DNA from: Candidatus Latescibacterota bacterium
GTDB lineage: Bacteria; Latescibacterota; UBA2968
Reading direction: 5' to 3'
Length of the DNA: 64,000 bases
Assembly (NCBI GenBank): GCA_965204375.1
Contig: OZ241986.1
Coordinates: 5,888,001 to 5,952,000, forward strand
This document shows positions 25,206 to 54,353 of this stretch, piece by piece (positions within the stretch are counted from its first letter, which is position 1; every line of letters starts with the position of its first letter). The notes under the pieces are model-generated. The model saw nothing but the letters and a program-made list of their open reading frames with translations. It had not been told where the DNA came from and did not search any database. The position numbers were made by a program, and so were the translations under genes.

Positions 25206-26375
25206 CTAAAACTTGAATGTTTTGCGTTCGGTTTGTGTAAGGGTTTGTTCGATGAGGGGGGCGAGGTCGAGCGTGGATTCGATTTCGAGGACTTTTTCCA
25301 AATTGGCGCGCGTTTCCGGGTGTTTGGGTACAAAGACAGAGCAACAATCTTCGTAGGGTTCGATGGAGATTTGATATGTGTCAATGCGTCGCGCTTCATT
25401 GATGATTTCTTCTTTGTTGTCACCGGCCAGGGGACGCAAGATGGGCAGTGGGGTCACTTCTTCGATAGCGCGCATGTTCGATAGGGTTTGCGAGGCGACC
25501 TGTCCGACGTTTTCGCCTGTGACGAGTGCCTGGGCATTTACTTTTTCGGCAATGGTTTCTGCAATGCGCAGCATGGCGCGGCGGTAGAGAATGACGCGGT
25601 AGCTCGCAGGTGCTCGCGTCATGATGTGGCGTTGAATTTCGACAAATGGTACCAGGTAGAGGTCCGACACGTATTGATGCCGGGTGAGGAGTCTCACGAG
25701 GTCTTCGGTGTTACGCTGGGAGTTGCGATTGGTATAGGGCTGGCTGTGAAAGTGTACATAGGTCAGTTTGACACCGCGTTTCATAATTTTGTAAGAAGCC
25801 ACGGGTGAGTCAATGCCCGAAGAGATGAGGCTTACTGCGCTTTCATTGGACCCGACGGGCAAACCCCCTGGTGCCGGAATTTTTTCGGCGTAGATAAATA
25901 TGCGTTGTGGGGCAATTTCAATAAAACAGGTGAGGTCAGGGTTGTCCATCAGGACGCGGGCACCCGACAGAGTTTGAATATGCTTGCCCACGTCCCGGTT
26001 GATTTGGTCCGAATTGAGCGGAAAGGTTTTGTCGCCGCGTCTGGTGACAATTTTGAAGGATTCGAAATCGGTTTTTTGTGCAAGTGTCCAGGTCGTTTCT
26101 CGAATGGCTTCGATATTGCGTTTGGCGATAACTGCTTCGGAAAAGTTGGCGATGCCAAAGACTGTCAGGAGTCGTTCGCGGATAACATCTATGGGTGATT
26201 CTGAGGTGAGTGAGAGCATCATGCGACCCGATAGACGCTCGACCTTTCCACAGGGTACGCCTTTGAGTGCGCGGTTGATGTTGGTCATCAGATGCCGTTC
26301 AAATTTGCCCCGATTTTTGCCTTTGAGGCCAATTTCGTGATAGTGTATGAGTATGAAGCGGTCGTTGGTCGTCAT
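25206..26375 (-). CDS. thiI: tRNA 4-thiouridine synthase (THUMP + PP-loop, no rhodanese domain)
   Basis: YHEIGLKGKNR, GGLPVG, SSGIDSPVA, GQVASQT, EDCC. Confidence 0.95.
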   Translation of the reverse strand: MTTNDRFILIHYHEIGLKGKNRGKFERHLMTNINRALKGVPCGKVERLSGRMMLSLTSESPIDVIRERLLTVFGIANFSEAVIAKRNIEAIRETTWTLAQKTDFESFKIVTRRGDKTFPLNSDQINRDVGKHIQTLSGARVLMDNPDLTCFIEIAPQRIFIYAEKIPAPGGLPVGSNESAVSLISSGIDSPVASYKIMKRGVKLTYVHFHSQPYTNRNSQRNTEDLVRLLTRHQYVSDLYLVPFVEIQRHIMTRAPASYRVILYRRAMLRIAETIAEKVNAQALVTGENVGQVASQTLSNMRAIEEVTPLPILRPLAGDNKEEIINEARRIDTYQISIEPYEDCCSVFVPKHPETRANLEKVLEIESTLDLAPLIEQTLTQTERKTFKF

Positions 26376-26383
26376 GAGATGGG

Positions 26384-27949
26384 TCAGGATTTAAGGGATA
26401 AATCGCGCTGGAGAATAACGAGGGTTATATCGTCGGTGCGCTGCGCTTTGCCAATAAAGGATTTGACATCGGCGACGAGGTCGGCAATCAGGTCTGTGGG
26501 TGTCCGATCTATGGATGCGCGTTCGAGGCAACGTATAAATCGGTCGTCGTCAAAGAAGTTGCGTTTGGCATTTTGGGCTTCGACGACACCATCGGAGTAG
26601 AGCACGAGGCGATCACCGGGCGCGAGTGTTAAATGCTCAACTCGATAGGGAGTTTGGGGGCGTACGAGTGCCGGAATGCCAAGGGGATATCCCACGAGAT
26701 CGATAAATTGAGATCGGTTGGATAGATGGATCGGTGGACAGTGTCCTGCGCTTGCAAGCGTGACTTCGCCTGTGGGTACGTCGAGCACAGCGATGCAGCA
26801 TGTGATAAATGTGGCCTGGTCAATCTGACCTTCCAGTGAGTCATTAAGACCGTCGAGAATATCGGCTGGTGCAACGCGATTTTGGCATTCATAGCGGAGC
26901 ATTTCATTGAAACGCACGGCGGTCACGGCTGCTTCCATGGCTTTGCCAGAGACATCGGCAACGACTATGCCGAGTTTTGTTTTGTCTTCATCCAACCAGC
27001 GGTACGCATAGTAATCCCCTCCCACGCTGTTGGCGGGAATACACGTTCCGTCGAGTGCAAAACCCGGCAGGTCGGGGCTGGATTGCGGCAACAGACCCAT
27101 TTGCATGTCGTGTGCTGTTTGCAATTCATCGCGCATTTCCGAAAATTGTTGTTTGTAGCTCTCCCACTGTCGCGCTTCTTCGCAAAGGGTCTGGTTGTAG
27201 GCCGATGCAAAAATCCCGAGTGCGAGGGGTTGAAAGAGGGCGAAGACACAGAACTGGACGAAGGCATTGTCGATGATATTCCTGGTGAGTGCAACTGAGC
27301 CTATGAGGATTCCGAGCGCGGTGAGTATAAGCGCGCAGTGGCGAAAGAAGCCGTAGCGTTCAACGGCTTTCCGACTTTCGACATAGGCTTCATCAATGTG
27401 TACACCCCGGTCTGCTGCCAGAAGATAGATGTAGAAGCATTTGACAACAAAAATGATGCCGGGTAAAAATAAGAGACAAGCTGCCAGAATGACGGCCCAA
27501 AAGATATTTTTTTCTTCTAATAACTTCCCAATGTGTTCTGATCCAACGGGGATAACCCAGGGCGTTCCTTGGGCAACGGCCTGTTTGAATGCATTGAGCA
27601 GAAATGCAAAGAAATCGCTGCTCATGAACACCAGTACCGAAATGATGACTAAGCCGAGAATAAAAAATAAAAAGATAAAAATGTTCATCGAAAAAAAACG
27701 GACGAAACGAATGATTTGCCCAAATAGATCTCGCATACGGGGTTTTTCCCCTTGCTGTGCGCGCAAGATCATGATGGCAAAGCCAGCATATAAGCTGCCC
27801 AGGAGCAAAGTGCCCGATATCACACTCAGGAGTATTGCCAAAAATGAAGCGAGAAACAAAATAGGCAGGTGACTCGCCCAGGAGGATATGCTGTCGTTGA
27901 GACAGCGGAAGTATTGGAGATTTGCCCGAACGGGGATATCGAGAGCCAT
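26384..27949 (-). CDS. membrane-anchored PP2C/SpoIIE serine phosphatase
   Basis: Multi-TM N-terminus; ELQTAHDMQMGLLP, VGGDYY, VADVSGK, AGH, YSDGVVEA, DDITL. Confidence 0.92.
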   Translation of the reverse strand: MALDIPVRANLQYFRCLNDSISSWASHLPILFLASFLAILLSVISGTLLLGSLYAGFAIMILRAQQGEKPRMRDLFGQIIRFVRFFSMNIFIFLFFILGLVIISVLVFMSSDFFAFLLNAFKQAVAQGTPWVIPVGSEHIGKLLEEKNIFWAVILAACLLFLPGIIFVVKCFYIYLLAADRGVHIDEAYVESRKAVERYGFFRHCALILTALGILIGSVALTRNIIDNAFVQFCVFALFQPLALGIFASAYNQTLCEEARQWESYKQQFSEMRDELQTAHDMQMGLLPQSSPDLPGFALDGTCIPANSVGGDYYAYRWLDEDKTKLGIVVADVSGKAMEAAVTAVRFNEMLRYECQNRVAPADILDGLNDSLEGQIDQATFITCCIAVLDVPTGEVTLASAGHCPPIHLSNRSQFIDLVGYPLGIPALVRPQTPYRVEHLTLAPGDRLVLYSDGVVEAQNAKRNFFDDDRFIRCLERASIDRTPTDLIADLVADVKSFIGKAQRTDDITLVILQRDLSLKS

Positions 27950-27954
27950 AATAA

Positions 27955-29364
27955 TCAGGGTTTTTCTTTGTTGAGTTTGTATTTGCGGTACAGGTGGCGA
28001 AATTGGTCGTAGCTGAGTTTGAGTTGTTTGGCGGCTTCGCGCTGGTTCCAGGAGACTTTATTGAGAATGCGCCGCAATAGACTCAGTTCAAAGGATTGCA
28101 CTTGTGATTCAAAGCCGTCGCTCAATTCGGGTGATTGGGATGCTTGTTGAGTAACTTCGGGGGGCAGATCGTCGGGTTCAATCTCTGTTCCATGGGCGAC
28201 ACAGGCCGCGCGTTCGGCCGCAAATTTGAGTTCGCGCACATTGCCAGGCCAGCGATATGTCATCAGGCGTTCTGTTGCCGCGTCGGAAAAATCGCGTTTT
28301 TGCAGGCCTGGTACTTCTTCGACGATTTGTGCGACAAAATAATTGGCTAATGCGGGAATGTCTTCTCGACGTTCGCGCAACGGGGGCATGTGCAAGACTT
28401 CAAAGCGCAATCTGTCGTAGAGGTCCTGGCGGAATCGGCCTTCGGCAATTTCCGTTTCGAGGTCGGTATTCGTGGCGGCAATAACGCGCACGTCGATAAA
28501 GATGGGGGTCGCGCTGCCCACGCGCTGGATTTCGCTGTATTCTATGGCGCGCAATACGTTTTGCTGAAATTCGGGGGTGGTATTGCCAATTTCATCGAGA
28601 AATAGGGTGCCGCCACTCGCGGCTTCAAATTTGCCCGTGCGGGCTTCTGTTGCGCCCGTATAAGCCCCTTTTTCGTGTCCAAAGAGTTCGCTTTCGAGCA
28701 ATTGGTCGGCAATGGCGGCGCAGTTGACTTTGACAAAGGGGCGGTCTTTGCGGTCACTGCCATAGTGGATGGCAGCGGCGACGAGTTCTTTGCCCGTTCC
28801 GGGTTCGCCTGTGATGAGCGCGGGCCGGGGGATGGGGGCTACGGTCTGCGCTCGCTGGAGGATTTGCTGGAGTTTGGGACTGGAGCCGATGATTTGATAA
28901 CGCTTGCCAAATTCGTCTCGGTAGAATTGGTTTTCGCGCCCCAGGTCCTGAACTTCGGCCCGCAGTTGGGCGTTTTCCCTGAGTGCTTGATACACGCGGT
29001 CGAGTTTTTCAAGGCTGAGTTCGATTTTGTCTTCGATATAAAAGTCTTTTTCAATAAAGTCTGTCGCGCCCAATCGCAATGCGGCTACGGCAGTATCTAT
29101 TGTGCCCTGTCCGGTGAGCATGATGACGGGCAGATCGGGAACCGATTCGAGCATTTGTGGTAAAATTTCGAGGCCATCGGGTTCATCGGGTCCGTAATCG
29201 AGGTCGAGAATGGCCAGTCCAATCTGATTGGGATGCTGTTGCAGATATGATAGTGCTTCGCGTCCGGTAGAGAAGGCATGGATTTTGCGCGTGTCGTCTC
29301 GCAGGCTTTGAATCAGCATGTCGAGGACTTCTATCTGGTCGTCAGCAACGATAATTTCAGTCAT
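27955..29364 (-). CDS. sigma54-dependent response regulator: REC + PspF-like AAA+ + HTH
   Basis: REC (VADD, ILD, MLTG, FIEK); GEPGTGKE, ESELFGHEKGAYTGA; PspF-like IEY, DRLRFEV and WNQREAAKQLKLSYDQFR. Confidence 0.92.
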   Translation of the reverse strand: MTEIIVADDQIEVLDMLIQSLRDDTRKIHAFSTGREALSYLQQHPNQIGLAILDLDYGPDEPDGLEILPQMLESVPDLPVIMLTGQGTIDTAVAALRLGATDFIEKDFYIEDKIELSLEKLDRVYQALRENAQLRAEVQDLGRENQFYRDEFGKRYQIIGSSPKLQQILQRAQTVAPIPRPALITGEPGTGKELVAAAIHYGSDRKDRPFVKVNCAAIADQLLESELFGHEKGAYTGATEARTGKFEAASGGTLFLDEIGNTTPEFQQNVLRAIEYSEIQRVGSATPIFIDVRVIAATNTDLETEIAEGRFRQDLYDRLRFEVLHMPPLRERREDIPALANYFVAQIVEEVPGLQKRDFSDAATERLMTYRWPGNVRELKFAAERAACVAHGTEIEPDDLPPEVTQQASQSPELSDGFESQVQSFELSLLRRILNKVSWNQREAAKQLKLSYDQFRHLYRKYKLNKEKP

Positions 29365-29376
29365 GGGACGAGGGGC

Positions 29377-30630
29377 TTATTGAATAAATTCTTCAGCTAT
29401 TGGATCGCGCGAGGTGTCGGGTACGCTGTGTTGCAGGCCAATGCTGTCGTGTTGTGTTGAGACTTCAAAATCGACGGGCAGGTCAATGCGAAAAACCGCG
29501 CCTGCGCCCGGGCGGCTGATTACGCGCAACGTGCCGCGGTGTGCTGCTGCAATGCGAGAGCATATACTCAGCCCATAGCCATTGCCCCGTTCCCGCGTTG
29601 AAAATCCGGGGTCAAATATGCGGGTTTGCAAGTTTTCGGGAATGCCGGGACCATTGTCTTCCACTTCAATATATACCGAACTGCGCTCTGTATCGGCGCC
29701 GACCTGTACTCTCACCACGCCATTATTTTCAACGGCTTCGATGGCGTTGAGGGTCAGGTTTGTGACGGCTTCAGATAACATGCCAGCATCTGCTTTTACC
29801 TGAGGTACACGAGGTTCGGCGGCAAAGATGAGTTCTTTGTCCCCTGCTCGTGCAGAGAGTTTGTGGGTCATTTTTTCAATGAGTTGGGGCACATCGACCA
29901 GCGCGGGGTTCAGGGTGTCTTGTTTCATAGATCGCAAGTAGGCAACCCATTGGCTGTAGATGTGTTCTTGTTCGTGTGCGATGTCTTTCAGATCATCCAG
30001 GCAGTCGGTATTTGGCGGTAAATTGCGTATGGCGCGACGCATTCGGCTGCCGGAGAGCCCCATCAGGTTTTTGATGCGATGGCCGTGCGTGTAGAGGCTT
30101 TCATAGACCTGTGCGCGCCCAAGGTCTATGAGTTCGAGAGATAGGCGGGCGAGAATGCTCGATGCTCTGACGCCAAATTCTTCGGTGATGCTTGCGTATT
30201 CGCGTTCCATTTGTGCCGGGCTCATGTGCTGAAAGAGCAATCGGGCGAGGTTGCGATAAGGTAGCATGTAATCGGGTTCGAGGTGTATGGCGATTTTAAA
30301 CTCGCCAAGAGCCGATAGGATTTGCCCATTTTGCATGAGCAAAACGCCCAGGTTGTTATGCCCGGGCGCAAAGAGGGGATCGGCTTCTAAACCCCGGCGG
30401 TAAACGGCTATGGCTCGAGATGCGTTTTCCGGGAAGTCATCGAGCAAGCTGCCCAACAAAAAACAGACACGGTCCATTTCTTCGCCCTGGTCATCGACAG
30501 ACAAAATGTATTCGAGGTGTTCAACCGCTTTTTTGTAGTCGCCCGAGCCTGGTGCTGCCCCGCGTGCGTGTTGCAGCGCCATTTGGAAACGGGATTCTAT
30601 GTCTGTGGCTATGTTCAGGGTGTTGGTCAT
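29377..30630 (-). CDS. soluble TPR-repeat sensor histidine kinase
   Basis: TPRs (GHNNLGVLL, YRNLA); H-box HRIKNL; N-box NLTLNA; DNGPG, FDPGFST, GYGL; no TM. Confidence 0.9.
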   Translation of the reverse strand: MTNTLNIATDIESRFQMALQHARGAAPGSGDYKKAVEHLEYILSVDDQGEEMDRVCFLLGSLLDDFPENASRAIAVYRRGLEADPLFAPGHNNLGVLLMQNGQILSALGEFKIAIHLEPDYMLPYRNLARLLFQHMSPAQMEREYASITEEFGVRASSILARLSLELIDLGRAQVYESLYTHGHRIKNLMGLSGSRMRRAIRNLPPNTDCLDDLKDIAHEQEHIYSQWVAYLRSMKQDTLNPALVDVPQLIEKMTHKLSARAGDKELIFAAEPRVPQVKADAGMLSEAVTNLTLNAIEAVENNGVVRVQVGADTERSSVYIEVEDNGPGIPENLQTRIFDPGFSTRERGNGYGLSICSRIAAAHRGTLRVISRPGAGAVFRIDLPVDFEVSTQHDSIGLQHSVPDTSRDPIAEEFIQ

Positions 30631-30649
30631 GGTTGTATGAATCTGCGGA

Positions 30650-30720
30650 ACGGGGTTCGTCTATGAACGGGGCTGGGAAACGCCCCGTTGTACCCCGCTC
30701 CGTCTATTCGTCTATTCGTC
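30650..30720. repeat. REP-like nested hairpin with (GTCTATTC)n
   Basis: CGGGGTTCGTCTATGAACGGGGC-TGGGAAAC-GCCCCGTTGTACCCCGCTCCGTCTATTCG; homologue of 8881-8957. Confidence 0.8.
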
Positions 30721-32292
30721 TTCTGTGGTATCGGGTTTGCCGTTTTCTCCAGATGCTTGTTCGCCGTTCATTTTGCCCAGAAATTCGGGCAATTCAAGCC
30801 CGGCGAGACGCGCCAGATCGTGCATGGGCGGTATGGCACCCATGAGGCGTTGTCCCAGGTTGGACATGCCACTCTCGCCATTGCCGCTGTCCCAGACCAT
30901 CACTTTGTCGATGGGCAAGTTGCTAATGGCTTCGGCCTGGATGTTGGCGACTTCGGTGAGACGTTCGATGATTAGAAAGGCCGCTGCTGCCTGGTCGTTG
31001 CTGCCACAGGCTTCAACGAGTTGTCTGTATCCTTCGGCTTTGGCATTGAGAATGGCCTGAGTCCCTTCGGCTTCGGCCTGTTTTTCTGCGAGAATGGCAG
31101 CGGCTTCACCTTCGGCAATAAGTCGTCGCTGTTCTTTTTCGGCTTCTGCTTGAACGACCTGGCGTTCTTTTTCGGCTTCTGCCTGAACGACGATTTCTGC
31201 GCGTAAACGCGCTTCTTCGCGCAGTGCTCGGGCTTCTTCGGCTGCTTTTTCCGCGGTTTCCTGGGCGACGCGAATAGCGCCGTCAGTGGCTTTGGTCGCT
31301 TCTTCTGCTTGCCGGCGCGCTTCTTCTTCTGCCACGCGTTGTCCCGCGCGATAGCCGGCTGTTTTTGCTTCTGCTTCTGTTTCTGCCTGTACGGCTTCTG
31401 CTTCGAGAGCTGCGACATTTTGGCGTTTGTCTCGCCCGGCTTCTGCTTCGCCGATTTCTGCTTCTGATTCGAGTGCTGCGACCTGTCGTCGCCTGTCTCT
31501 CGCAGCTTCAGATTCACCAATTTCTGCTTCTGATTCGAGTGCTGCGACCTGTCGGCGTCTGTTTCGCGCTGCTTCTGCTTCGCCAACTTCAGCTTCTGAT
31601 TCGGCAGCGGCGACGTCCCGACGCCGATCGCGTGCGCGTTCGGCCACACCAACCTGCCCGTGTCGTTCTTGTTCGGCTACGTCGATAGATGCTTGATTCA
31701 CGGCTTCAGCCGCTGCTTTTTGGCCGATGGCTTTGATGTAGCCGCTTTCGTCATCGAGGTCTTTGATGTTGACGTTGATGACGGAGAGACCAATTTTTTC
31801 CATTTCAGTGGAGACGGCGTCATTTACTTTGGTCATGAATGCCTGTCGGTCCTGGTTGATTTCTTCAATTTGCATGGTTGCAATGACTGCGCGCATCTGA
31901 CCGAGGATGATGTCTTGTGCCTGGCTTTGAACTTGTTCGCGGGAAAGGCCCAGGAGGCGGATGGCCGCGTTTTGCATGATGCCGGGTTGATTGGAGACGG
32001 CTGCTGTGACTGTGGTGGGCACGGATACGCGGATGTTTTCCTGTGATAGCGCGTTGTCCAGGTCAATGGGTACGACAAAGGGTTCGAGGTCGAGGTAGTC
32101 GTAGTCCTGCAATAGGGGCAGGATAAAAGCTGCGCCGCCGTGTACACATTTTGCGGCTGTGCCACCCCCTGTTTTGCCGTAGATGACGAGTATTTTGTTG
32201 GATGGACAGCGTTTGTAACGCGAGATAAATGTGAGGAACAGCAATAATACAACGGCTGATAGGATGACGGTGAGGATGAATTCAGTGGGCAT
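30712..32292 (-). CDS. flotillin (SPFH/Band 7) family protein
   Basis: N-terminal TM, SRYKRCPS, GG.AF..P, GQMRAVIA, EA-rich coiled coil with 22-aa repeats. Confidence 0.93.
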   Translation of the reverse strand: MPTEFILTVILSAVVLLLFLTFISRYKRCPSNKILVIYGKTGGGTAAKCVHGGAAFILPLLQDYDYLDLEPFVVPIDLDNALSQENIRVSVPTTVTAAVSNQPGIMQNAAIRLLGLSREQVQSQAQDIILGQMRAVIATMQIEEINQDRQAFMTKVNDAVSTEMEKIGLSVINVNIKDLDDESGYIKAIGQKAAAEAVNQASIDVAEQERHGQVGVAERARDRRRDVAAAESEAEVGEAEAARNRRRQVAALESEAEIGESEAARDRRRQVAALESEAEIGEAEAGRDKRQNVAALEAEAVQAETEAEAKTAGYRAGQRVAEEEARRQAEEATKATDGAIRVAQETAEKAAEEARALREEARLRAEIVVQAEAEKERQVVQAEAEKEQRRLIAEGEAAAILAEKQAEAEGTQAILNAKAEGYRQLVEACGSNDQAAAAFLIIERLTEVANIQAEAISNLPIDKVMVWDSGNGESGMSNLGQRLMGAIPPMHDLARLAGLELPEFLGKMNGEQASGENGKPDTTEDE

Positions 32293-32306
32293 AGGGTCCC
32301 CTTTGT

Positions 32307-32915
32307 TTAGGATTGAATGGGTTCTACTTCGACTGTGGTTATGTCGAGTGTTCGCAATACGCGAACCGGCGTTTTATTCTGGATGGACTGCCCGTCTTTG
32401 CTGCGTGCAGAGACGTAGTTGACAGCCCCGCTTTCCATTACGCGAATTTGACCGGCGCCATTTTCGGGGATGTCGATATAGACTTCGCCTTCATTGCCGA
32501 TACAGGACGATAGGTTTCGGTTATGCGATTCGGAGAGTTGTTGCACTTTGTAGAAGAAATATGCAACCAGGACCATCCCTGCGCCGCCCCATACGAGGCC
32601 GCGAAGAACCGATTCTTCGATTGAGAGGCCCAGGTCGAGGTAGAGTGCGCCCGCCCAGCCAAAGAGCATGCCAAAGGCTATTACAGAACGCAGCGAGAGC
32701 AGTTGAAAGGTGGCGACACCGTGATCATAAGGACTATTATCGACATCTGGCCCCGCATCGTTGGCATTGAAGCTGTCATGGTCCATGACGTCTGCGGAAT
32801 CGCCCAGGCCGATGAGTGTTGTGATAAATTGCCAGAGAAACAAAAGGGTGAAGAAGACAGCACAGCCATAGAATGCCTGATTGAGAGGCGCGAGTTCTGA
32901 CCACCATGCCTGCAT
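32307..32915 (-). CDS. NfeD-like membrane protein (flotillin partner)
   Basis: 3 TM plus C-terminal OB-fold IGNEGEVYIDIP..G.GQI; directly upstream of flotillin. Confidence 0.85.
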   Translation of the reverse strand: MQAWWSELAPLNQAFYGCAVFFTLLFLWQFITTLIGLGDSADVMDHDSFNANDAGPDVDNSPYDHGVATFQLLSLRSVIAFGMLFGWAGALYLDLGLSIEESVLRGLVWGGAGMVLVAYFFYKVQQLSESHNRNLSSCIGNEGEVYIDIPENGAGQIRVMESGAVNYVSARSKDGQSIQNKTPVRVLRTLDITTVEVEPIQS

Positions 32916-33020
32916 ATTAACCTCCAGAAATCGATTGCGCGTTCCATCAACTATTTTAGGTGTAGGAATCTGTTATTCTTAAATTTGTTCATGCAAGGGA
33001 CGAAAAGCAAGGGTTATTTC

Positions 33021-33611
33021 TTATCCGGGTTGTAAGCCGAGTTTGCGAAATTCGCTTTTGAGCTGGCGGCGGGCGCGGCACAGCCAGGTTTTTACGGTTC
33101 CAAGCGGAACGCGAAGTGCCTGTGTAATTTCTTCGTAGGACCAGTCCATGACGTAGCGCAGCCACATGGCTTTGCGATAGCGTTCGGGCAAGTTTTGTAT
33201 GCTTTTGTGGACCAATTGTATGCGTTCGCGTTTTTCTACGATCTGGTCTGGTAGCGCGCCGGGTATGAGGTCGCGGAGGACGTTGTGTACGACTTCGGGG
33301 TCTTCGGTTTGATAGACCCAGTTTTGCCGCACTTGCTGCGAGCGGAGGTGCGATCGATAGACGTTGAGGGCAATTTGCGTGAGCCAGGTCGAAAATGCTG
33401 CCTGGCCTTTGAATGTGTGGAGCGAGCGATAGGCGCGAAAAAATGTGTCTTGCATCAGGTCGTCAACGGTGTCGCGGTCTGAAAGGCGCTGTGCGAGGGT
33501 GCCGTAGATCTGACTTTGATATTTGTGGTAGAGCGTTTCAAATGCCCGGCGGTCGCCAGAGAGGGATGCGCGAATCAGGTTTTGATCCTGTGTTTTCACT
33601 TTTTTCTCCAT
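33021..33611 (-). CDS. ECF RNA polymerase sigma factor
   Basis: GDRRAFETLY, DLMQDTFFRAY, FSTWL..IA.N, LP..YR, SYEEI...L..PLGTVKT.L.RAR. Confidence 0.93.
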   Translation of the reverse strand: MEKKVKTQDQNLIRASLSGDRRAFETLYHKYQSQIYGTLAQRLSDRDTVDDLMQDTFFRAYRSLHTFKGQAAFSTWLTQIALNVYRSHLRSQQVRQNWVYQTEDPEVVHNVLRDLIPGALPDQIVEKRERIQLVHKSIQNLPERYRKAMWLRYVMDWSYEEITQALRVPLGTVKTWLCRARRQLKSEFRKLGLQPG

Positions 33612-33669
33612 TCGTTAAGGTAATTCGTTAATTACTACTCTTTTGATTGTGATAAGACGGATTTTTCCG

Positions 33670-33840
33670 TCAGTCTCTTCTGAGCAAGCGATAACCGATC
33701 GCAATACATATAGCGGCGATGAGAAGTCCGATCAGGTGCAAGATTGATTCCAGTAGAGAGCCGATGAGTGGGAAGAGAACTGTAAAGGCAATATAGCCGC
33801 CGATGACGATGAATAAGATGCCGATGAGTTTTGCCAACAT
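33670..33840 (-). CDS. small 2-TM membrane protein (56 aa, absent from ORF track)
   Basis: AAAGGA RBS; MLAKLIGILFIVIGGYIAFTVLFPLIGSLLESILHLIGLLIAAICIAIGYRLLRRD*. Confidence 0.8.
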   Translation of the reverse strand: MLAKLIGILFIVIGGYIAFTVLFPLIGSLLESILHLIGLLIAAICIAIGYRLLRRD

Positions 33841-33871
33841 GGGATGTCCTTTTTATTTTTGAGGTTGTCCG

Positions 33872-34231
33872 TCAATCCGAGATGGTCTGCGGAGGTGGAG
33901 ATGGTGTAGCGAGTGATTTGCTTTCGAGACGCTCGAGTTTGTCGTCGTTGGTGATGACGATGTCCTGCAGGTCAATGAGGCGTTTTTCGAGTTCTTTCAC
34001 GCGTTTTGTCAGTTTTTCAGACAGGTTGTTGTTTTTTATTGATCTATTTCTTCGTTCGTCTTCTGACGCAAATGTGAATGTGATAGTAAAAAAGGTGATG
34101 AAAGCCATAGCCCCCCAGGCTGCCGCCAGGCCGAGACCACCTCCCAATGTTGGGTTTTCGATATAGACAATTGTGCCGCTTGCAAGAATAATCAGGCTGA
34201 TACCAACCGTGATTGTAAGAAAGATACGCAT
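33872..34231 (-). CDS. PspB-like membrane protein (2 TM + coiled coil), paralogue 3
   Basis: RVKELEKRLIDLQDIVITNDDKL tail shared with neighbours. Confidence 0.75.
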   Translation of the reverse strand: MRIFLTITVGISLIILASGTIVYIENPTLGGGLGLAAAWGAMAFITFFTITFTFASEDERRNRSIKNNNLSEKLTKRVKELEKRLIDLQDIVITNDDKLERLESKSLATPSPPPQTISD

Positions 34232-34248
34232 GGTGCCCTCCCTGTAAA

Positions 34249-34482
34249 TTAGCGCGCAGTGGGTGATCGGTCGAATTTTTCGTCCATGGTGATGAGGATA
34301 TCCTGAATGTCTGTGAGCCTGCGGTCGAGTTCATCTATTCTCGCATTCAAGCGTTCTTCTGCATCGCTGGGAATGGACCCTTTGGTGCGGCGATCAATGT
34401 ATTTGTGTACTGCTGACGCAATGGCGCCTACAATGATGATCATCAATATGCCACCCATAGTGACACCAATAACATTAGTCAT
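34249..34482 (-). CDS. PspB-like membrane protein (1 TM + coiled coil), paralogue 2
   Basis: AGGAGG RBS; SIPSDAEERLNARIDELDRRLTDIQDILITMDEK. Confidence 0.8.
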   Translation of the reverse strand: MTNVIGVTMGGILMIIIVGAIASAVHKYIDRRTKGSIPSDAEERLNARIDELDRRLTDIQDILITMDEKFDRSPTAR

Positions 34483-34493
34483 TTTACCCCTCC

Positions 34494-34697
34494 TTATCTT
34501 CTGCTGAGTTTTTCATCAATGGTGATCATGACATCTTGAATGTCTGTGAGTCTGCGTTCGAGTTCGTCCATTCTCGCGTTTATGCGTTCTTCTGCATCGC
34601 TGGGGATGGACCTTCTGGTGCGGTGCTCGACGTATTTGTATGCCGCTGATGCGAGAATGATTATCGCTACCATCATTCCAATTTCAAACATTACCAT
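34494..34697 (-). CDS. PspB-like membrane protein (1 TM + coiled coil), paralogue 1
   Basis: GGAGG RBS; SIPSDAEERINARMDELERRLTDIQDVMITIDEK. Confidence 0.8.
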   Translation of the reverse strand: MVMFEIGMMVAIIILASAAYKYVEHRTRRSIPSDAEERINARMDELERRLTDIQDVMITIDEKLSRR

Positions 34698-34718
34698 TAT
34701 TTTGCCCTCCCACACACA

Positions 34719-35387
34719 TTAGAGTTCATCGATGGGTCTCGCGCGGTATTTTTCATCCCAGCGTTCGATTTCCGGAAAATGGTAAACGACCAGTCCCGAA
34801 TCTGAGATTCGCATTTCCGCATGACCACTTATGGTTAATTCTCGCAGGATTTCTTCGGTTTTTTCAACTGTTATTCTGGTGTCCATGGCAGCTTCTGTTA
34901 CGGTGAGGCTGCCCCCTTTTTCTCGGGCGAGACGGAGTATGCGATGCTGATTTTTGGCATGTGCTTTTTTGTCTCCCGATCTTTTGACCCGGCGACCTGC
35001 CCACCATATAAGTTGAGAGAAGACGATTATACAGAGGCCAACACTGAGTTCTTCGTGTCTGAATGGATTTGTGTCTGCCCAGGGGGGATGTTCTACCAGT
35101 GTAATGAGTACGAGCATGAGGCCGCAAAATCCCATAAGTGCGGCCATTCCTATTAAACCATAAGCGAAGAGATAACGCATGGCACAACTCCCATCGGTGG
35201 CGAGGTCAGAGAGGCGGTCGGGCACGCGCTTGAATGAATTGGTTGCGGTTTGGAAATCGCTGCTCGCGCTGTGAACGCGCGCCTCCCAATTTCCCTTCCA
35301 TTTCTTTTTTATTTTTCGCTCCGCATTGTTGACCGCGCGGTCAATTTTGCTGGCGATTTCATCGGCGAGTTTTTCCAGGTCACGCAT
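34719..35387 (-). CDS. membrane protein: N-terminal helical region, 2 TM, C-terminal winged-helix-like domain
   Basis: RILRLAREKGGSLTVTEAAM......E..L..L...G......SDSG.VVYHF; overlaps pspA stop. Confidence 0.75.
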   Translation of the reverse strand: MRDLEKLADEIASKIDRAVNNAERKIKKKWKGNWEARVHSASSDFQTATNSFKRVPDRLSDLATDGSCAMRYLFAYGLIGMAALMGFCGLMLVLITLVEHPPWADTNPFRHEELSVGLCIIVFSQLIWWAGRRVKRSGDKKAHAKNQHRILRLAREKGGSLTVTEAAMDTRITVEKTEEILRELTISGHAEMRISDSGLVVYHFPEIERWDEKYRARPIDEL

Positions 35388-36057
35388 CTTTTTGTCCCAT
35401 TTTCTTTTTTAGTGCATTGAGTTCGTCTTCTACTGTGCTTTTGCGCTCGAGTTTGGAAAATTCTTCTTCCAGAGAGGGGTCAGCACTCGCCATTTCTTGA
35501 TGGGCTTCGGCTTCGGCTTCTTCGGTTTCGATGCGCTGGCGGAACCGTTCAAAGCTCGAAAATGCGTCTTCACCTACTCCCGAGAGGCCCCTGGCGATTT
35601 GCTTGCGGGCTTCGGCTGCACGACGTCGGGCAATTAGAGTGCCCTGGCGGGTGCGGGCTTCGTCGAGTTTGGCTTTGAGTTGGGTGAGTTGTTGTTTGAG
35701 TTGGGACGAGGTTTTACGGCTTTCTTCGAGGGCGACTTCAAGGTCGTGTGTGGCTTCCTGATTTGCAGCTTTGCGCTCGAGGGCGCGGCGGGCAAGGTCG
35801 TCTTCGCCGGCTTCAACGGCTAATTCGGCTTTTTTTTGCCAGGCTTCGATTTGATCCTGTTTTTCGAGATATTGTCTTTCCAGGCGTTTTTCATTCGCTA
35901 CAGCCGTGCCGACTGAGGCAGTGGCTTTGTTGACGGCTTCTTCCATTTCCAGAATCATCTGGCGGATCATTTTTTCCGGGTCTTCGGCGCGGGTAATCAG
36001 GTCGTTGACGTTGGCTTTGACGATGTCGGCCATTCTGTAAAAAATTCCGCGTGCCAT
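35380..36057 (-). CDS. pspA: phage shock protein A (PspA/IM30)
   Basis: GIFYRMADIVKANVNDLITRAEDPEKMIRQMILEME; AELAVEAGEDDLARRAL; VEDELNALKKKM. Confidence 0.95.
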   Translation of the reverse strand: MARGIFYRMADIVKANVNDLITRAEDPEKMIRQMILEMEEAVNKATASVGTAVANEKRLERQYLEKQDQIEAWQKKAELAVEAGEDDLARRALERKAANQEATHDLEVALEESRKTSSQLKQQLTQLKAKLDEARTRQGTLIARRRAAEARKQIARGLSGVGEDAFSSFERFRQRIETEEAEAEAHQEMASADPSLEEEFSKLERKSTVEDELNALKKKMGQKDA

Positions 36058-36125
36058 GATTTACTCCTTTCACAAGGTGCTACATTTATGGGATTCTGAT
36101 GTTTTTTGTTGTCGCATTCTTTTTA

Positions 36126-36141
36126 TGCAAAGTCTATGCCA
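36126..36141 (-). promoter_or_regulatory. sigma54 (-24/-12) promoter of the pspA operon
   Basis: Minus strand TGGCATAGACTTTGCA vs consensus TGGCAC-N5-TTGCA, ~70 bp upstream of pspA ATG. Confidence 0.88.
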
Positions 36142-36215
36142 GGAGTGTGATGTGATATTAAATGTTGTTTTTTATATACATAGATGTTTTAGAGAAATGG
36201 GACAGGTCGATAGAG

Positions 36216-36254
36216 TTGGTAAAAATTGCCATGTGTGCTGGCGAAAGAGACCAA
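36216..36254. promoter_or_regulatory. two putative bEBP enhancer (UAS) sites
   Basis: TGG-N9-CCA at 36217-36231 and 36239-36253, 22 bp apart, ~100-140 bp upstream of the sigma54 start. Confidence 0.65.
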
Positions 36255-36374
36255 ATTTTCAATTTTTAGAGGGTCATATCTTGTCTTTTTTTTCTAAAAG
36301 GTCTATTATCTATCGGTTTGTCGCAAGTTGGTCTCAAATGTCACTACTTTTTTACTTTATATACTGAATTTTTT

Positions 36375-37886
36375 ATGCTTCGATATATCCGAGTGTCTTT
36401 ATTGGCCTGCTTCCTTTTGTCGTGTGCGGCACATGCGCCTGCTTTAACAGAGACTTATGTGGTGCAAAGAGGGGATTCTCTGTGGGAAATTGCCGATCAG
36501 TTTTCCATGAGTGTGGCCGAACTCAAGCGGAGCAATGGGTTAAAGTCGCATCACATTTATCCCGGACAAAGACTGCTCATTCGCTCACAAAGGCTTCCCA
36601 TGCGCTCCTCCAGTGGGGTAGAATACGTGGTGAGAAGGGGAGATTCGCTTTCTAAAATCGCCGCGCGGTTTTCTATGAGTGTGTCCGAACTGAAGCGTAT
36701 CAATGGTTTGAGGTCGAATAATATTTATCCCGGACAAAGGCTTCGTATCCGCTCTTCTGCAGCGCAACCGTCTCGCTCCCGTTCTTATACTGAGCAATCG
36801 TCTCGCACCACAGTGCAACCGTCTCGCTCCCGTCCATCTTCTGGCTACGTAGAAATGGACTATGTGGTGAGAAGGGGGGATACACTTTCTAAAATTGCCG
36901 CACAATATTCTATGGGCCTGACTGAACTCAAGCGGAGCAATGGTATCCGGGCAGATCGCATTTATGTGGGCCAGAGGTTAAAGATACGGACTCGGTTAAC
37001 AAAGATCACGATGGATAATGGGCCGTATTATTTTTATCGTCCCAAAGCTGCTGTGCAACGCAGTCGGAGATATCGGGAAGTGCCCCCCAAAAAGCCGATT
37101 GAAGATTATAGGAGTGCCCGCAATTTGATGGGCGTGTTTAATGCAAATATTAATTCTGATATGCGTCGAGATAGCCGATCACAGCCGTTGAAAGGCTGGC
37201 GCATTGTGCTCGACCCGGGGCATGGTGGACGCGACCCGGGTGCTATTGTTTCCAATTTAGATGGCAATAATCGTTCGGTTTATGTGGTCGAAGACGAATT
37301 TGTTTACGATATCGCGTTGCGTTTGTACCAAAAACTGAGGCTTGCAGGTGCCGAGGTGGAGATGACGGTGATTAGTCCAAATCATCTCATTCGGGAAAAT
37401 AATCCGCCTGCAAGGACGTTTGTACACGAACAAAACGAAGTCTATAACGATGTAAGTGTCAACAGAAGAAATAGTTTTTCAGTGCGTCCGGGGCTTGATA
37501 ATATTGTACAGCGGGTAAAAATAGCCAACCGTTTCTTTGCAAGGCGCGGGAAGACTCTGTTTATATCCCTGCATGCAGACAACACGCCCAATCGCTCAAA
37601 GGGTCCGCTGGTTATTTATTGGAGCAGGCGCGGGAAGATCGATTCCCGGTCCCGGTCATTTGCGCGGATTATGGAAAGGGCACTCGATCTGCCAGATGTG
37701 CCCGCTCAAATTGGGGGACGCAATCTGGCGGTGTTGCGGGGCAATCTGGCGCAGGCAGAAATTCTGGTGGAGATACGCAATGTACACCATAAAGGCGAAG
37801 CATGGGCATTGCGGTCCCACAAGAGGCGCGACTCCGATGCGAATCGAATTTTTCGCGGGATATTAAATTACGCGAAGAGGTATTAG
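36375..37886 (+). CDS. 3xLysM + N-acetylmuramoyl-L-alanine amidase (Amidase_3)
   Basis: Signal peptide; three YVV.RGD.L..IA LysM repeats; VLDPGHGG, SLHAD, LVE. Confidence 0.92.
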   Translation: MLRYIRVSLLACFLLSCAAHAPALTETYVVQRGDSLWEIADQFSMSVAELKRSNGLKSHHIYPGQRLLIRSQRLPMRSSSGVEYVVRRGDSLSKIAARFSMSVSELKRINGLRSNNIYPGQRLRIRSSAAQPSRSRSYTEQSSRTTVQPSRSRPSSGYVEMDYVVRRGDTLSKIAAQYSMGLTELKRSNGIRADRIYVGQRLKIRTRLTKITMDNGPYYFYRPKAAVQRSRRYREVPPKKPIEDYRSARNLMGVFNANINSDMRRDSRSQPLKGWRIVLDPGHGGRDPGAIVSNLDGNNRSVYVVEDEFVYDIALRLYQKLRLAGAEVEMTVISPNHLIRENNPPARTFVHEQNEVYNDVSVNRRNSFSVRPGLDNIVQRVKIANRFFARRGKTLFISLHADNTPNRSKGPLVIYWSRRGKIDSRSRSFARIMERALDLPDVPAQIGGRNLAVLRGNLAQAEILVEIRNVHHKGEAWALRSHKRRDSDANRIFRGILNYAKRY

Positions 37887-53150: not shown

Positions 53151-54353
53151 ATGAATTTACGCTTTTGCGCTGTGCTGTGTATGCTTATGGCCCTGAACGG
53201 AGAGGAACTGCGGGCTGAAACGCGCGTGTTTTGGGTAGCTGACGGCCCTATGGGATCGGATTTTGATGGCGATGGCAAGGTGACGTTTACCGATTTTTTG
53301 CACTTTGTCAATAGTTTTAATGCGGATCCTGAAGATGAGAGTTATGATCCCCGCACGGATTTGAATGAGGACGGGGTCACGAATTTTAACGATTTTTTGG
53401 CATTTAGTTCTTCTTATGGTCAAGCGAAGACACCTGCCGAATCGAGCGGAGATCGATATATTATTTATGTGGCGGATGTAGATGATAGTTCGGTTATGGC
53501 ACTGGATTCTGATTCACATCTGATACTCGATTATATGCCCTATCGCGGTCCGGGTGGGGTAATGGTGTCTGCCGATCAGCAGTCGATTTATGTGTCGGAG
53601 GTGTTTGGCTTTTTCAAGATGGACACGCGCCATCAGGTGGAGTTTAGCGTGCCTGTTGAATCGCGGGGTAAAGCGGTACTGAGTCTCGATCAGACGCGGG
53701 CTTATGTGACCGATCAAGTACAGGATCTGGTTCGCGTAGTGGATGTAGTGAATGGCGTTACCGTAGATTCTATTCTGGTGGGCAATCGACCATTTGATGT
53801 CGCGCTCGCGCCCGATGGCACAAAGTTGTATGTGGCAAATCTAAATGATCGAAATGTGGTTGTTGTCGATCTGGCAACGATGACGGTTACGGCGAGGATA
53901 ATTATTGGTGATTTTACGGGGGAGATAGCAATTACGCAGGATGGAGCGCGCGCTTATGTGACAAATTTGACGCGCGGTGTGATTTCTGTTTTGGATCTCA
54001 ATACCAATCAGGTGGTGGGCGCGCTTCAGATTGATCAGGGGTCTTCGTTTGGTGCAGAGTTTTCGCCCGATAAAAAGTTATTGTACGTGAGCGCGGAGGG
54101 CGTGTTGTTGGAAATTGATGTGGAGCACAATTTGATTGTTCGCACATTGCGACTGGGAAATGATTCGACGGTGCTCGGGGTTTCGCCCGATGGCTCTCGA
54201 GCTTATGTTGCAACGCTTGTGCAACAGGCTGGGGGACCGGGACTTACAGTGGTGGATTTGAATGAGTGGCGAATTCTCGGGCGGTTACGGGGATTCTTTT
54301 ACCCGAGGGAGATCGCGTTTCGGACTGTGCCGAGGATTACGGGATCTCAGTGA
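53151..54353 (+). CDS. secreted dockerin/EF-hand + YncE/YVTN beta-propeller protein
   Basis: Signal peptide; DFDGDGKVTFTDF / DLNEDGVTNFNDF; repeated PDG..AYVT/AN. Confidence 0.85.
   Translation: MNLRFCAVLCMLMALNGEELRAETRVFWVADGPMGSDFDGDGKVTFTDFLHFVNSFNADPEDESYDPRTDLNEDGVTNFNDFLAFSSSYGQAKTPAESSGDRYIIYVADVDDSSVMALDSDSHLILDYMPYRGPGGVMVSADQQSIYVSEVFGFFKMDTRHQVEFSVPVESRGKAVLSLDQTRAYVTDQVQDLVRVVDVVNGVTVDSILVGNRPFDVALAPDGTKLYVANLNDRNVVVVDLATMTVTARIIIGDFTGEIAITQDGARAYVTNLTRGVISVLDLNTNQVVGALQIDQGSSFGAEFSPDKKLLYVSAEGVLLEIDVEHNLIVRTLRLGNDSTVLGVSPDGSRAYVATLVQQAGGPGLTVVDLNEWRILGRLRGFFYPREIAFRTVPRITGSQ

Follow-up and report, generated by a model that had tools for sequence, protein, structure and literature searches.

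The 64,000-nt stretch of DNA analysed here (the window; positions 5,888,001 to 5,952,000 of the forward strand of contig OZ241986.1, assembly GCA_965204375.1) comes from a Candidatus Latescibacterota bacterium and carries, on its minus strand at 27955..29364, an open reading frame (ORF) with an ATG start for a 469-residue protein, in which a receiver (REC) domain precedes a sigma54-interacting AAA+ domain and a C-terminal helix-turn-helix (HTH). Our comparison of sequences shows this regulator to be a response regulator within a PspF-like family wider than PspF itself; most likely, it activates a sigma54 promoter of pspA under the control of a soluble histidine kinase built on tetratricopeptide repeats (TPR). 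We put at roughly 0.7 the probability that the regulator and the TPR kinase form a two-component system, with sigma54-dependent transcription of pspA and of the adjoining gene for a 222-residue membrane protein as its output. PspF, by comparison, is the textbook example of an enhancer-binding protein that has no regulatory domain of its own and that PspA regulates in trans.

The receiver occupies residues 4–111 of the regulator (29032..29355, minus strand, as for all features of the protein given below) and matches Pfam Response_reg at 62.8 bits. The acidic pocket, the phospho-acceptor aspartate and the conserved threonine and lysine that mark NtrC-family receivers are found as D8, D9, D54, T84 and K106 in a residue readout; among 27 family members, D54 is invariant and the other four positions are at least 90% conserved. 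The AAA+ domain and its lid (residues 158–413; 28126..28893) are matched by Pfam Sigma54_activat at residues 158–321 (218.1 bits) and AAA_lid_14 at residues 330–413 (86.7 bits), and contain the Walker A motif GEPGTGKE as well as a GAYTGA loop (from residue 233; 28651..28668), a natural F-to-Y variant of the GAFTGA loop that contacts sigma54. At the C-terminus no Pfam HTH model matched at E≤0.001; by BLASTP, the region aligns end to end with the HTH of Escherichia coli PspF. This C-terminal HTH (residues 418–467; 27964..28113) comprises predicted helices at residues 418–436, 441–447 and 452–461 and carries the PspF-type recognition motif LSYDQFRHLYRKY, within which LSYDQFR (residues 450–456) fits the pattern L-[ST]-Y-[DH]-Q-F-R.

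An AlphaFold2 model of the regulator, with a mean predicted local distance difference test score (pLDDT) of 86.7 and a predicted template modelling score of 0.57, shows a canonical receiver, an AAA+ fold and a three-helix C-terminal HTH. The receiver is joined to the AAA+ domain by a predicted single long helix (residues 110–155; 28900..29037), and the pLDDT drops to 59–77 over residues 121–160, in the second half of this helix. Among solved structures, the best matches by sequence are 4l4u (275.8 bits) and 1ny5 (269.2 bits), and the top Foldseek matches of the full model are NtrX, NtrC1 and NtrC4, including the inactive-state structures 1ny5 and 3dzd. We did not retain Foldseek on the full model as a subfamily test, as it does not discriminate among subfamilies of bacterial enhancer-binding proteins (bEBPs). 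In NtrC1 and DctD, the unphosphorylated receiver represses assembly. The long linker helix, the NtrC1 sequence matches and the 1ny5 and 3dzd fold matches are compatible with such negative control by an unphosphorylated receiver dimer.

The BLASTP alignment with PspF of E. coli K-12 MG1655 (taken from NC_000913.3) covers residues 157–464 of the regulator with 141 of 321 identities (44%), runs to the last residues of both proteins, and pairs LHYLSSRWQGPF with IHYGSDRKDRPF. An earlier note on this DNA, made from its letters alone and here called the original prediction, had described PspF-type signatures in the AAA+ domain and HTH, and every string that it quoted is present: APIPRPALITGEPGTGKEL at residue 176, LRAIEY at residue 271, DRLRFEV at residue 317 and NQREAAKQLKLSYDQFR at residue 440. 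The segment HYGSDRK (residues 200–206; 28747..28767), which it had set against HYLSSRW of the E. coli W56 loop, is likewise the counterpart of that loop in our alignment and in the column across the family. In E. coli, PspA docks on a patch of PspF formed by Y51, L52 and W56, the YLW patch, as passages of PMC3791423 report. The regulator keeps only the tyrosine of this patch as Y201, the leucine being replaced by G202 and the tryptophan by K206.

Phylogenetic analysis places the regulator with PspF. We combined the 150 best representatives from a library of 1.8 billion proteins with the 18 other bEBPs of the source genome, 8 orthologues and 6 E. coli references including PspF, NtrC, AtoC, ZraR, NorR and FhlA, and built trees on the AAA+ domain after removing 4 fragments and, of these 183 proteins, the 28 that have AAA+ domains in tandem. 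In a FastTree tree of 152 rows, E. coli PspF and the regulator share a 35-row clade with a support of 99. Next to E. coli PspF, this clade has 11 further proteins without a receiver, 22 whose N-terminus is extended by the length of a receiver, the regulator's family among them, and 1 other. The same 35 rows are split from 40 others in an IQ-TREE 'quick' tree of 75 rows (LG+C20+F+G4) at a Shimodaira–Hasegawa-like approximate likelihood ratio test (SH-aLRT) value of 100, and these 40 include E. coli NtrC, AtoC, ZraR, NorR and FhlA and 14 bEBPs of the source genome. A third tree, of 89 rows (IQ-TREE quick), separates 69 PspF-like from 20 outgroup rows, again at an SH-aLRT of 100. Not one of the 18 other own-genome bEBPs in the 152-row tree falls inside the PspF-like clade. 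The grouping of the AAA+ domain with PspF, rather than with NtrC or AtoC, thus bears out the original prediction, and the three trees and the HTH motif agree on it.

Sequence motifs follow the same division. Among the 152 bEBPs, the HTH tail Y[DH].[FLM][RKL] is found in 34 of the 35 clade members and in none of the 117 others, and its strict form, YDQFR or YHQFR, in 22/35 versus 0/117. In the AAA+ domain, DRL.F occurs in 35/35 versus 0/117, [RK]P.[LV][IVL].GE in 33/35 versus 0/117 and LR.[IVL]EY in 33/35 versus 2/117. The HTH motif is the only one independent of the trees, because the three AAA+ motifs sit in columns that define the clade. Judged from these counts, the sharing of motifs between the regulator and the PspF-like clade is far from chance. 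The regulator is also the only one of the genome's 19 bEBPs with a PspF-type HTH. A receiver-less bEBP encoded elsewhere in the genome (3058982–3059668, a 331-aa open frame) is not PspF-like: it sits on a long branch, is without the HTH motif and, of the 19 bEBPs, scores lowest with the PspF model.

Against curated models, the full-length regulator scores 346.6 bits with NtrC TIGR01818 (cut-off 558.6) and 343.8 bits with PspF TIGR02974 (cut-off 443.55). With the receiver removed, TIGR02974 becomes the best of 23 NCBIfam models at 346 bits, followed by NifA at 335, NorR at 313 and NtrC at 292.2 bits; E. coli PspF itself reaches 541 bits with TIGR02974. No NCBIfam equivalog cut-off is passed by the regulator. 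It is NtrC-type in architecture, yet it is not NtrC, and it is not an NCBIfam PspF equivalog.

Our comparison across phyla suggests that the PspF-like family splits into three control architectures, only one of which would use the W56 mechanism. We scanned one genome per species for the pattern L[GKD][LM][ST]YDQFR, which gave 580 stretches, 518 of them confirmed, and compared the best 80 of the 518 by likeness of the HTH to that of the regulator; 77 of these loci encode a complete AAA+ domain, and 63 of the 77 have pspA within 10 kb. Class A (17 loci, from Spirochaetota, Verrucomicrobiota, Alphaproteobacteria, Brocadiaceae and Gemmatimonadota) has no receiver, carries W56 and a leucine at position 52 in 17/17, has no kinase gene just upstream (0/17) and lies within 10 kb of pspA in 16/17, with pspA divergent upstream in 15. 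Class B (18 loci, from Calditrichota, Acidobacteriota, Omnitrophota and Deferribacterota) also has no receiver and no kinase just upstream (0/18), lacks W56 (0/18), varies at position 52 and lies within 10 kb of pspA in 14/18. Class C (42 loci, from Latescibacterota, Myxococcota and Planctomycetota), to which the regulator belongs, bears a receiver, lacks W56 (0/42), varies at position 52, has a kinase gene just upstream in 39/42 and lies within 10 kb of pspA in 33/42. Hence, W56 is confined to receiver-less canonical PspFs (17/17 versus 0/60 of the others), and an upstream kinase gene to receiver-bearing loci (39/42 versus 0/35). The TIGR02974 cut-off is passed by 4/4 class A representatives, which bear W56, and by 0/6 of classes B and C, so the curated 'PspF' model corresponds to class A.

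Further features vary among the classes. The 42 receiver-bearing loci have GAYTGA in 14 and GAFTGA in 27; GAYTGA replaces GAFTGA in the source genus and its nearest relatives, and also in 4/18 class B and 1/17 class A loci. Within these sequences, the F-to-Y change in the GAFTGA loop is one that recurs naturally in the PspF-like family. In the 14 class B loci near pspA, the activator gene is followed directly by pspA and then usually by flotillin, and the 3' end of the gene for the activator holds a tandem box of the kind described below. The order in Myxococcota is kinase, regulator, pspA and extracytoplasmic function (ECF) sigma factor, and the gene downstream of the regulator passes the Pfam PspA_IM30 cut-off in the 3/3 loci checked.

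The distribution of W56 and the phylogeny of the receivers revise two points of the original prediction, which held that the regulator had gained a receiver and described the tryptophan as lacking. Among the tree sequences, W56 is present in 9/9 members of the canonical receiver-less clade, 0/26 other clade members and 0/11 outgroups. In the 89-row tree, rooted on the 20 outgroup bEBPs, class A forms one clade (SH-aLRT 100) and most of class B another (100), the receiver-bearing lineages forming a poorly resolved backbone. W56 is therefore best read, on this sequence evidence, as having arisen on the class A stem and as a derived trait of canonical PspF; its absence from the regulator would be the ancestral state and not a loss, because the residue is confined to the canonical clade and absent from the outgroups, and to be without W56 is the general bEBP state in the proteins compared. 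Set against 47 receivers of other bEBPs, those of 33 class C proteins, drawn from three phyla, group together as a single clade (SH-aLRT 98), in a tree without five proteins whose N-terminal regions fell below the receiver filter. Since the class C receivers form one clade, the fusion is old and single, and it did not occur in the regulator's own lineage. An approximately unbiased (AU) test does not reject class A as sister to all the rest (p 0.787), and the tree constrained in this way exceeds the quick free one by 18.8 log-likelihood units. Two histories are thus possible: either one receiver gain followed the class A split, or the ancestor had a receiver that classes A and B lost.

The gene for the partner kinase (29377..30630, minus strand; 417 aa) ends 12 nt upstream of the regulator gene. 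Its product matches Pfam HATPase_c at 85.4 bits together with TPR models; the N-terminal 170 residues are TPR repeats, no membrane segment is predicted, and H184 in the H-box GH184RIKNLMG is invariant in 12 kinase orthologues. Among the class C neighbour kinases checked, TPR repeats and HATPase are likewise found together in 5/5 from Myxococcota and 2/2 from Planctomycetota.

The proposed target, the membrane-repair gene pspA (35380..36057, minus strand; 225 aa), matches PF04012 at 159.7 bits and scores 181.5 bits against TIGR02977, under its cut-off of 242.95. Upstream of it lies a putative sigma54 -24/-12 promoter element, TGGCATAGACTTTGCA (36126..36141, minus strand), 69–84 nt from the ATG, found by pattern search and by conservation: GGCAC-N5-TTGC is aligned at this place in 12/12 genomes, amid otherwise diverged sequence. 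Sigma54-type sites in the window number 2, against 2.74 expected by chance, and the promoter argument is therefore carried by position and conservation because the count matches chance. The one further sequence of the window that comes near the sigma54 consensus, TTGCACAAGCGTTGCA (54209–54224, minus strand), lacks the GG of the -24 element and is probably a chance occurrence. The genome encodes rpoN (413 bits, over the cut-off).

Farther upstream lies a tandem upstream activating sequence (UAS), the candidate enhancer, with two TGG-N9-CCA units 7 nt apart that read TTGGTCTCTTTCGCCAGCACACATGGCAATTTTTACCAA on the pspA strand (36217..36253, minus strand) and are conserved in relatives. In the 12-genome alignment it appears as the conserved tandem inverted repeat TTGGT-N7-GCCA-N8-TGGC-N7-ACCAA, and the strict flanked form of this repeat occurs once in the 6.34-Mb genome. 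Only the pspA of this cluster, one of three pspA paralogues in the genome, has the tandem enhancer. In classes A and B, and likewise in Latescibacterota, the same tandem TGG-N9-CCA box precedes pspA, for example TTGGCGTAAATCACCA...TTGGCGTATTTCACCA, and with at most one mismatch it gives 56 matches over the 77 loci versus 19 in shuffles (1.19 Mb). Between the UAS and the promoter, an alignment of 12 upstream regions shows a conserved A/T-rich block that includes AAAAACAA (36150..36180, minus strand) and is possibly, by inference only, a DNA-bending site of the integration host factor (IHF) type. According to passages of PMC3709507, the E. coli psp promoter has two UAS and IHF. By eye, the E. 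coli UAS matches the box at 9 of 12 specified bases, which offers a lead only that the E. coli psp enhancer may be a degenerate copy of the tandem box. Taken together, the HTH motif and the tandem TGG-N9-CCA box provide a simple means, open to test, of recognising PspF-type regulators.

A second pspA paralogue of the genome (223 aa; within 5701329–5712247 of the genome) is preceded, at a distance of about 50 nt, by a sigma54 element close to consensus, TGGCACAGATATTGCA, and has no PspF-type box. A different receiver-bearing bEBP, outside the PspF-like clade, is encoded 9 kb away beside another sigma54 site. The two own-genome pspA genes thus appear, from their sequences, to be sigma54-dependent via different activators.

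In the mechanism that we propose, the kinase would autophosphorylate on H184 and pass the phosphate to D54 of the regulator. Phosphorylation of the receiver would permit assembly of the hexamer, with the one long helix joining receiver and AAA+ domain; the HTH would bind the tandem TGG-N9-CCA enhancer, about 90–130 nt upstream of the -24/-12 promoter, and the GAYTGA loop would remodel the sigma54 holoenzyme. Within this scheme, phosphotransfer, DNA binding at the pspA enhancer and the sign of receiver control are inferred.

A predicted complex suggests how PspA itself might enter this circuit. We modelled the kinase TPR domain (residues 1–172) with PspA, using a 12-row alignment for each and three unrelated proteins as controls. 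The interaction prediction score from aligned errors (ipSAE) was 0.68, 0.73 and 0.68 for TPR–PspA and 0.00 for the best of the three controls; the contacts agree to at least 96% across runs and the pLDDT of the partner is at least 76. By this measure, the model favours binding, as a prediction. The ipSAE mark is reached by 58/80 solved complexes and 2/110 mismatched pairs, a calibration that is rough here as our own alignments were used. The predicted interface joins TPR residues 78–119 and 147–155 with PspA residues 8–10, 41–62 and 105–123, which belong to the HR1/HR2 coiled coil, the part of E. coli PspA that regulates PspF according to passages of PMC6003685. The interface positions of PspA are invariant in 21/26 versus 109/199 elsewhere (p 0.012). 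The PspA paralogues gave no specificity signal, with identities of 8/26 and 10/26 at the interface versus 59/199 and 84/199 elsewhere.

From these models, the chance that free PspA binds the kinase TPR domain via its HR1/HR2 coiled coil falls somewhat short of even, and PspA feedback may have been rerouted to the kinase rather than lost. If PspA does bind there, its movement to damaged membrane would change the output of the kinase, and the negative feedback between PspA and PspF known from E. coli would have moved from the activator to the kinase. We hypothesise that the soluble kinase senses membrane stress via PspA on its TPR domain; were this true, the contact would show a negative feedback loop moving between signalling levels in evolution. 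A wider account, in which a TPR kinase and a receiver-bearing PspF constitute a widespread but so far unrecognised two-component form of the Psp response in Latescibacterota, Myxococcota and Planctomycetota, with PspA reporting membrane state to the TPR domain and not to the activator, and canonical PspF is derived from it by loss of the receiver and gain of the YLW patch with W56, on which PspA could then act directly, is tentative and in our judgement rather unlikely.

Several observations weigh against the assignment of the regulator to PspF-type control of pspA, or limit the evidence for it. The regulator gene does not adjoin pspA: it lies 6 kb away, downstream in the same orientation and behind the kinase gene. 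Its protein stays below the curated PspF cut-off (346 versus 443.55 bits), so that the PspF profile named by the original prediction as a check is not reached, even though it is the best model for the protein without its receiver. The trees were built with FastTree or with IQ-TREE in 'quick' mode, with support given as SH-aLRT rather than bootstrap, and the 80 comparison loci were selected through an HTH pattern and for their likeness to the regulator, include 24 from Latescibacterota and are not independent where they are kin. Genome-wide, the loose box is nonspecific, with 4 exact matches versus 2 in the shuffle and 152 versus 69 at up to one mismatch; only its position and the strict flanked form carry weight because of this. 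Seven Myxococcota loci with kinase, regulator and pspA, searched with simple patterns, showed no clear -24/-12 element and no box near pspA. On the kinase side, invariance is not enriched at the predicted interface (12/24 versus 60/148, p 0.50), and the controls of the complex prediction were neither coiled coils nor the two PspA paralogues.

Among the alternatives, the one closest to the original prediction would have a canonical PspF that recently took up a receiver and lost W56, with control wholly by phosphorylation, no regulatory role for PspA and a kinase that senses another signal. The intact receiver, the absence of both W56 and L52 and the adjacent kinase gene all fit this account, as do the status of the PspA–TPR contact as a prediction only and the lack of special conservation at the kinase interface. 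We consider it unlikely, since the single clade of 33 receivers from three phyla makes the fusion not recent, W56 was gained in the one receiver-less clade that has it, and the PspA–TPR prediction passed while its controls stayed at 0.00. Of the switch of control proposed by the original prediction, the first half, the move to phosphorylation, is plausible, given a kinase gene 12 nt upstream and the same pairing in 39/42 loci; the second half, a departure from PspA sequestration, is not supported in that form, in that the predicted PspA–TPR binding may keep PspA feedback at the level above the activator. Dual control, by phosphorylation and by direct inhibition of the AAA+ domain by PspA via a surface other than the YLW patch, seems to us improbable. 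A second PspA site on E. coli PspF, one that PspA's C-terminal domain uses, is proposed in passages of PMC6003685, Y51 is kept in the regulator, and class B proteins with neither receiver nor tryptophan exist and must be controlled somehow; against this, the regulator has glycine and lysine at two of the three YLW residues that PspA inhibition needs in E. coli, as passages of PMC3791423 describe.

An ordinary NtrC-family regulator acting at another promoter, such as that of flotillin/NfeD or of the PP2C gene, with pspA driven by a different enhancer-binding protein, is very improbable in our estimate. NtrC is nominally the top NCBIfam match of the full-length protein, databases name its orthologues 'NtrC family response regulator', and the distance to pspA, the 18 other bEBPs and the second sigma54-preceded pspA paralogue leave room for such an arrangement. 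The NtrC score, however, depends on the receiver, and PspF is the top model once this is removed; the PspF-type HTH motif is missing from all 18 other bEBPs, which also stay outside the clade, the enhancer at pspA is the same box that accompanies PspF-type regulators in other phyla, and no further -24/-12 site was found in the cluster, the sole other site of the window being that at 54209. Least probable of all is a pseudo-receiver, serving for dimerisation independently of phosphorylation while the neighbouring kinase acts on another regulator. The beta3–alpha3 loop after D54, which exceeds that of Aquifex NtrC1 by 2 residues, would suit such a module, but all five active-site positions are conserved in the 27 family members, and the 12-nt gap to the kinase gene and the pairing across receiver-bearing loci speak against it. 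We thus retain the two-component reading, with the regulator as a receiver-bearing relative of PspF acting at pspA.

The regulator and pspA belong to a cluster whose genes, between 36057 and 25206, are all on the minus strand and follow one another in the order pspA, the 222-aa and a 119-aa membrane protein, ECF sigma factor, NfeD-like protein, flotillin, TPR kinase, regulator, PP2C phosphatase and ThiI. We examined synteny in 11 relatives of the same order, whose bEBPs are 67–85% identical to the regulator, and the order pspA, 222-aa protein, ECF sigma factor, kinase and regulator is kept in 11/11; of 41 genomes from the order, 39 have an orthologue of the regulator. The ORF for the 222-aa membrane protein (34719..35387, minus strand) overlaps the stop codon of pspA, and the two are probably co-translated, as their overlap suggests. 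The 222-aa protein belongs to no known family (no match in NCBIfam or Pfam) and adjoins pspA in 11/11 relatives, one of which has just the C-terminal portion. Its C-terminal domain is soluble, and the protein is a candidate membrane partner of PspA; the genome, a single contig that is 96% complete, yielded neither a PspB nor a PspC domain.

The ECF sigma factor gene between pspA and the kinase (33021..33611, minus strand; TIGR02937 at 104.4 bits, over the cut-off of 42.9) is present in 11/11 relatives and also stands directly after pspA in five Myxococcota loci. No recognisable anti-sigma factor lies beside it. This sigma factor may belong to the same regulon and widen the response. The NfeD-like and flotillin (SPFH) gene pair (30712..32915, minus strand; Band_7 at 96.7 bits, and a weak NfeD C-terminal match with E 0.008) is found in 9/11 relatives. 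The flotillin (30712–32292, minus strand) carries a series of 22-residue repeats that are almost identical to one another (EAEIGEAEAARDRRRQVAALES-like), and their number varies in 66-nt steps among metatranscriptome and metagenome contigs of relatives. Downstream of the regulator, the gene for a membrane-anchored PP2C/SpoIIE phosphatase (26384..27949, minus strand; PF07228 at 155.4 bits) starts 5 nt after the regulator stop codon. The phosphatase has a multi-pass membrane domain and occurs in 5/11 relatives, being kept in the genus and one sister genus and not in the sister family.

Contigs of four metatranscriptome runs from three studies span the whole cluster and are 90–99% alike. We set them aside as evidence of transcription or of the promoter: a 12-kb record crosses the pspA promoter, DNA carry-over is possible, and contigs give no start sites. 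Those over 26000–36600 come from sponge and coral libraries, and relatives of the source organism therefore inhabit host-associated communities of this kind. The region of the 119-aa gene (33905–34495) is deleted in some sponge and coral contigs.

In the full-text literature, we found no receiver-bearing PspF relative and no TPR kinase controlling pspA, and the supplements or web application of PMC11237479 may list such neighbourhoods. In passages of that paper, one of two large surveys of how Psp evolved, PspF stands outside the detailed analysis and only ACT- or PAS-bearing NtrC-like neighbours are mentioned; passages of the other survey, PMC9239133, state that descriptions of PspF are confined to Enterobacteriaceae and that it is hard to assign elsewhere, and the word 'receiver' is absent from PMC3041696. 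The present comparison suggests that the classic E. coli control of the Psp stress response is one of several ways.

Known systems resemble the one described here in part. The Bacillus LiaRS–LiaIH system also uses a histidine kinase and a response regulator to induce a PspA-family gene on envelope stress, as passages of PMC9239133 relate. LiaR is a REC-HTH protein whose promoter is of the sigma70 type, and LiaS, a kinase of the membrane, operates together with LiaF, whereas here a sigma54 AAA+ activator of the PspF lineage would act with a soluble kinase that has a TPR sensor. Desulfovibrio vulgaris DVU2989, a predicted PspF from outside the Enterobacteria, is likewise a sigma54 activator, assigned to a phage-shock operon by comparative genomics in passages of PMC4641369; it is described there as single-component and without an N-terminal domain, whereas the regulator here would be part of a two-component system. 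With Aquifex NtrC1 and NtrC4 and Sinorhizobium DctD, the regulator shares the REC-AAA+-HTH architecture and a long helix from receiver to AAA+ domain, but its AAA+ domain and HTH fall in the PspF-like clade and not in their lineages, and its linker helix is longer by about 14 residues in the alignment. Finally, both the regulator and E. coli PspF, the canonical phage-shock activator (TIGR02974 / PRK11608), fall in the same clade and share the AAA+ signatures and the HTH motif Y-D/H-Q-F-R, and in both systems a sigma54 pspA promoter is preceded by two upstream sites and an A/T-rich spacer, the E. coli arrangement being given in passages of PMC3709507. Among the differences between the two are that the regulator carries a 155-residue receiver and linker that PspF does not have, that L52 and W56 of the PspA-docking YLW patch are absent from it, and that its gene, unlike that of PspF, is not divergently adjacent to pspA.

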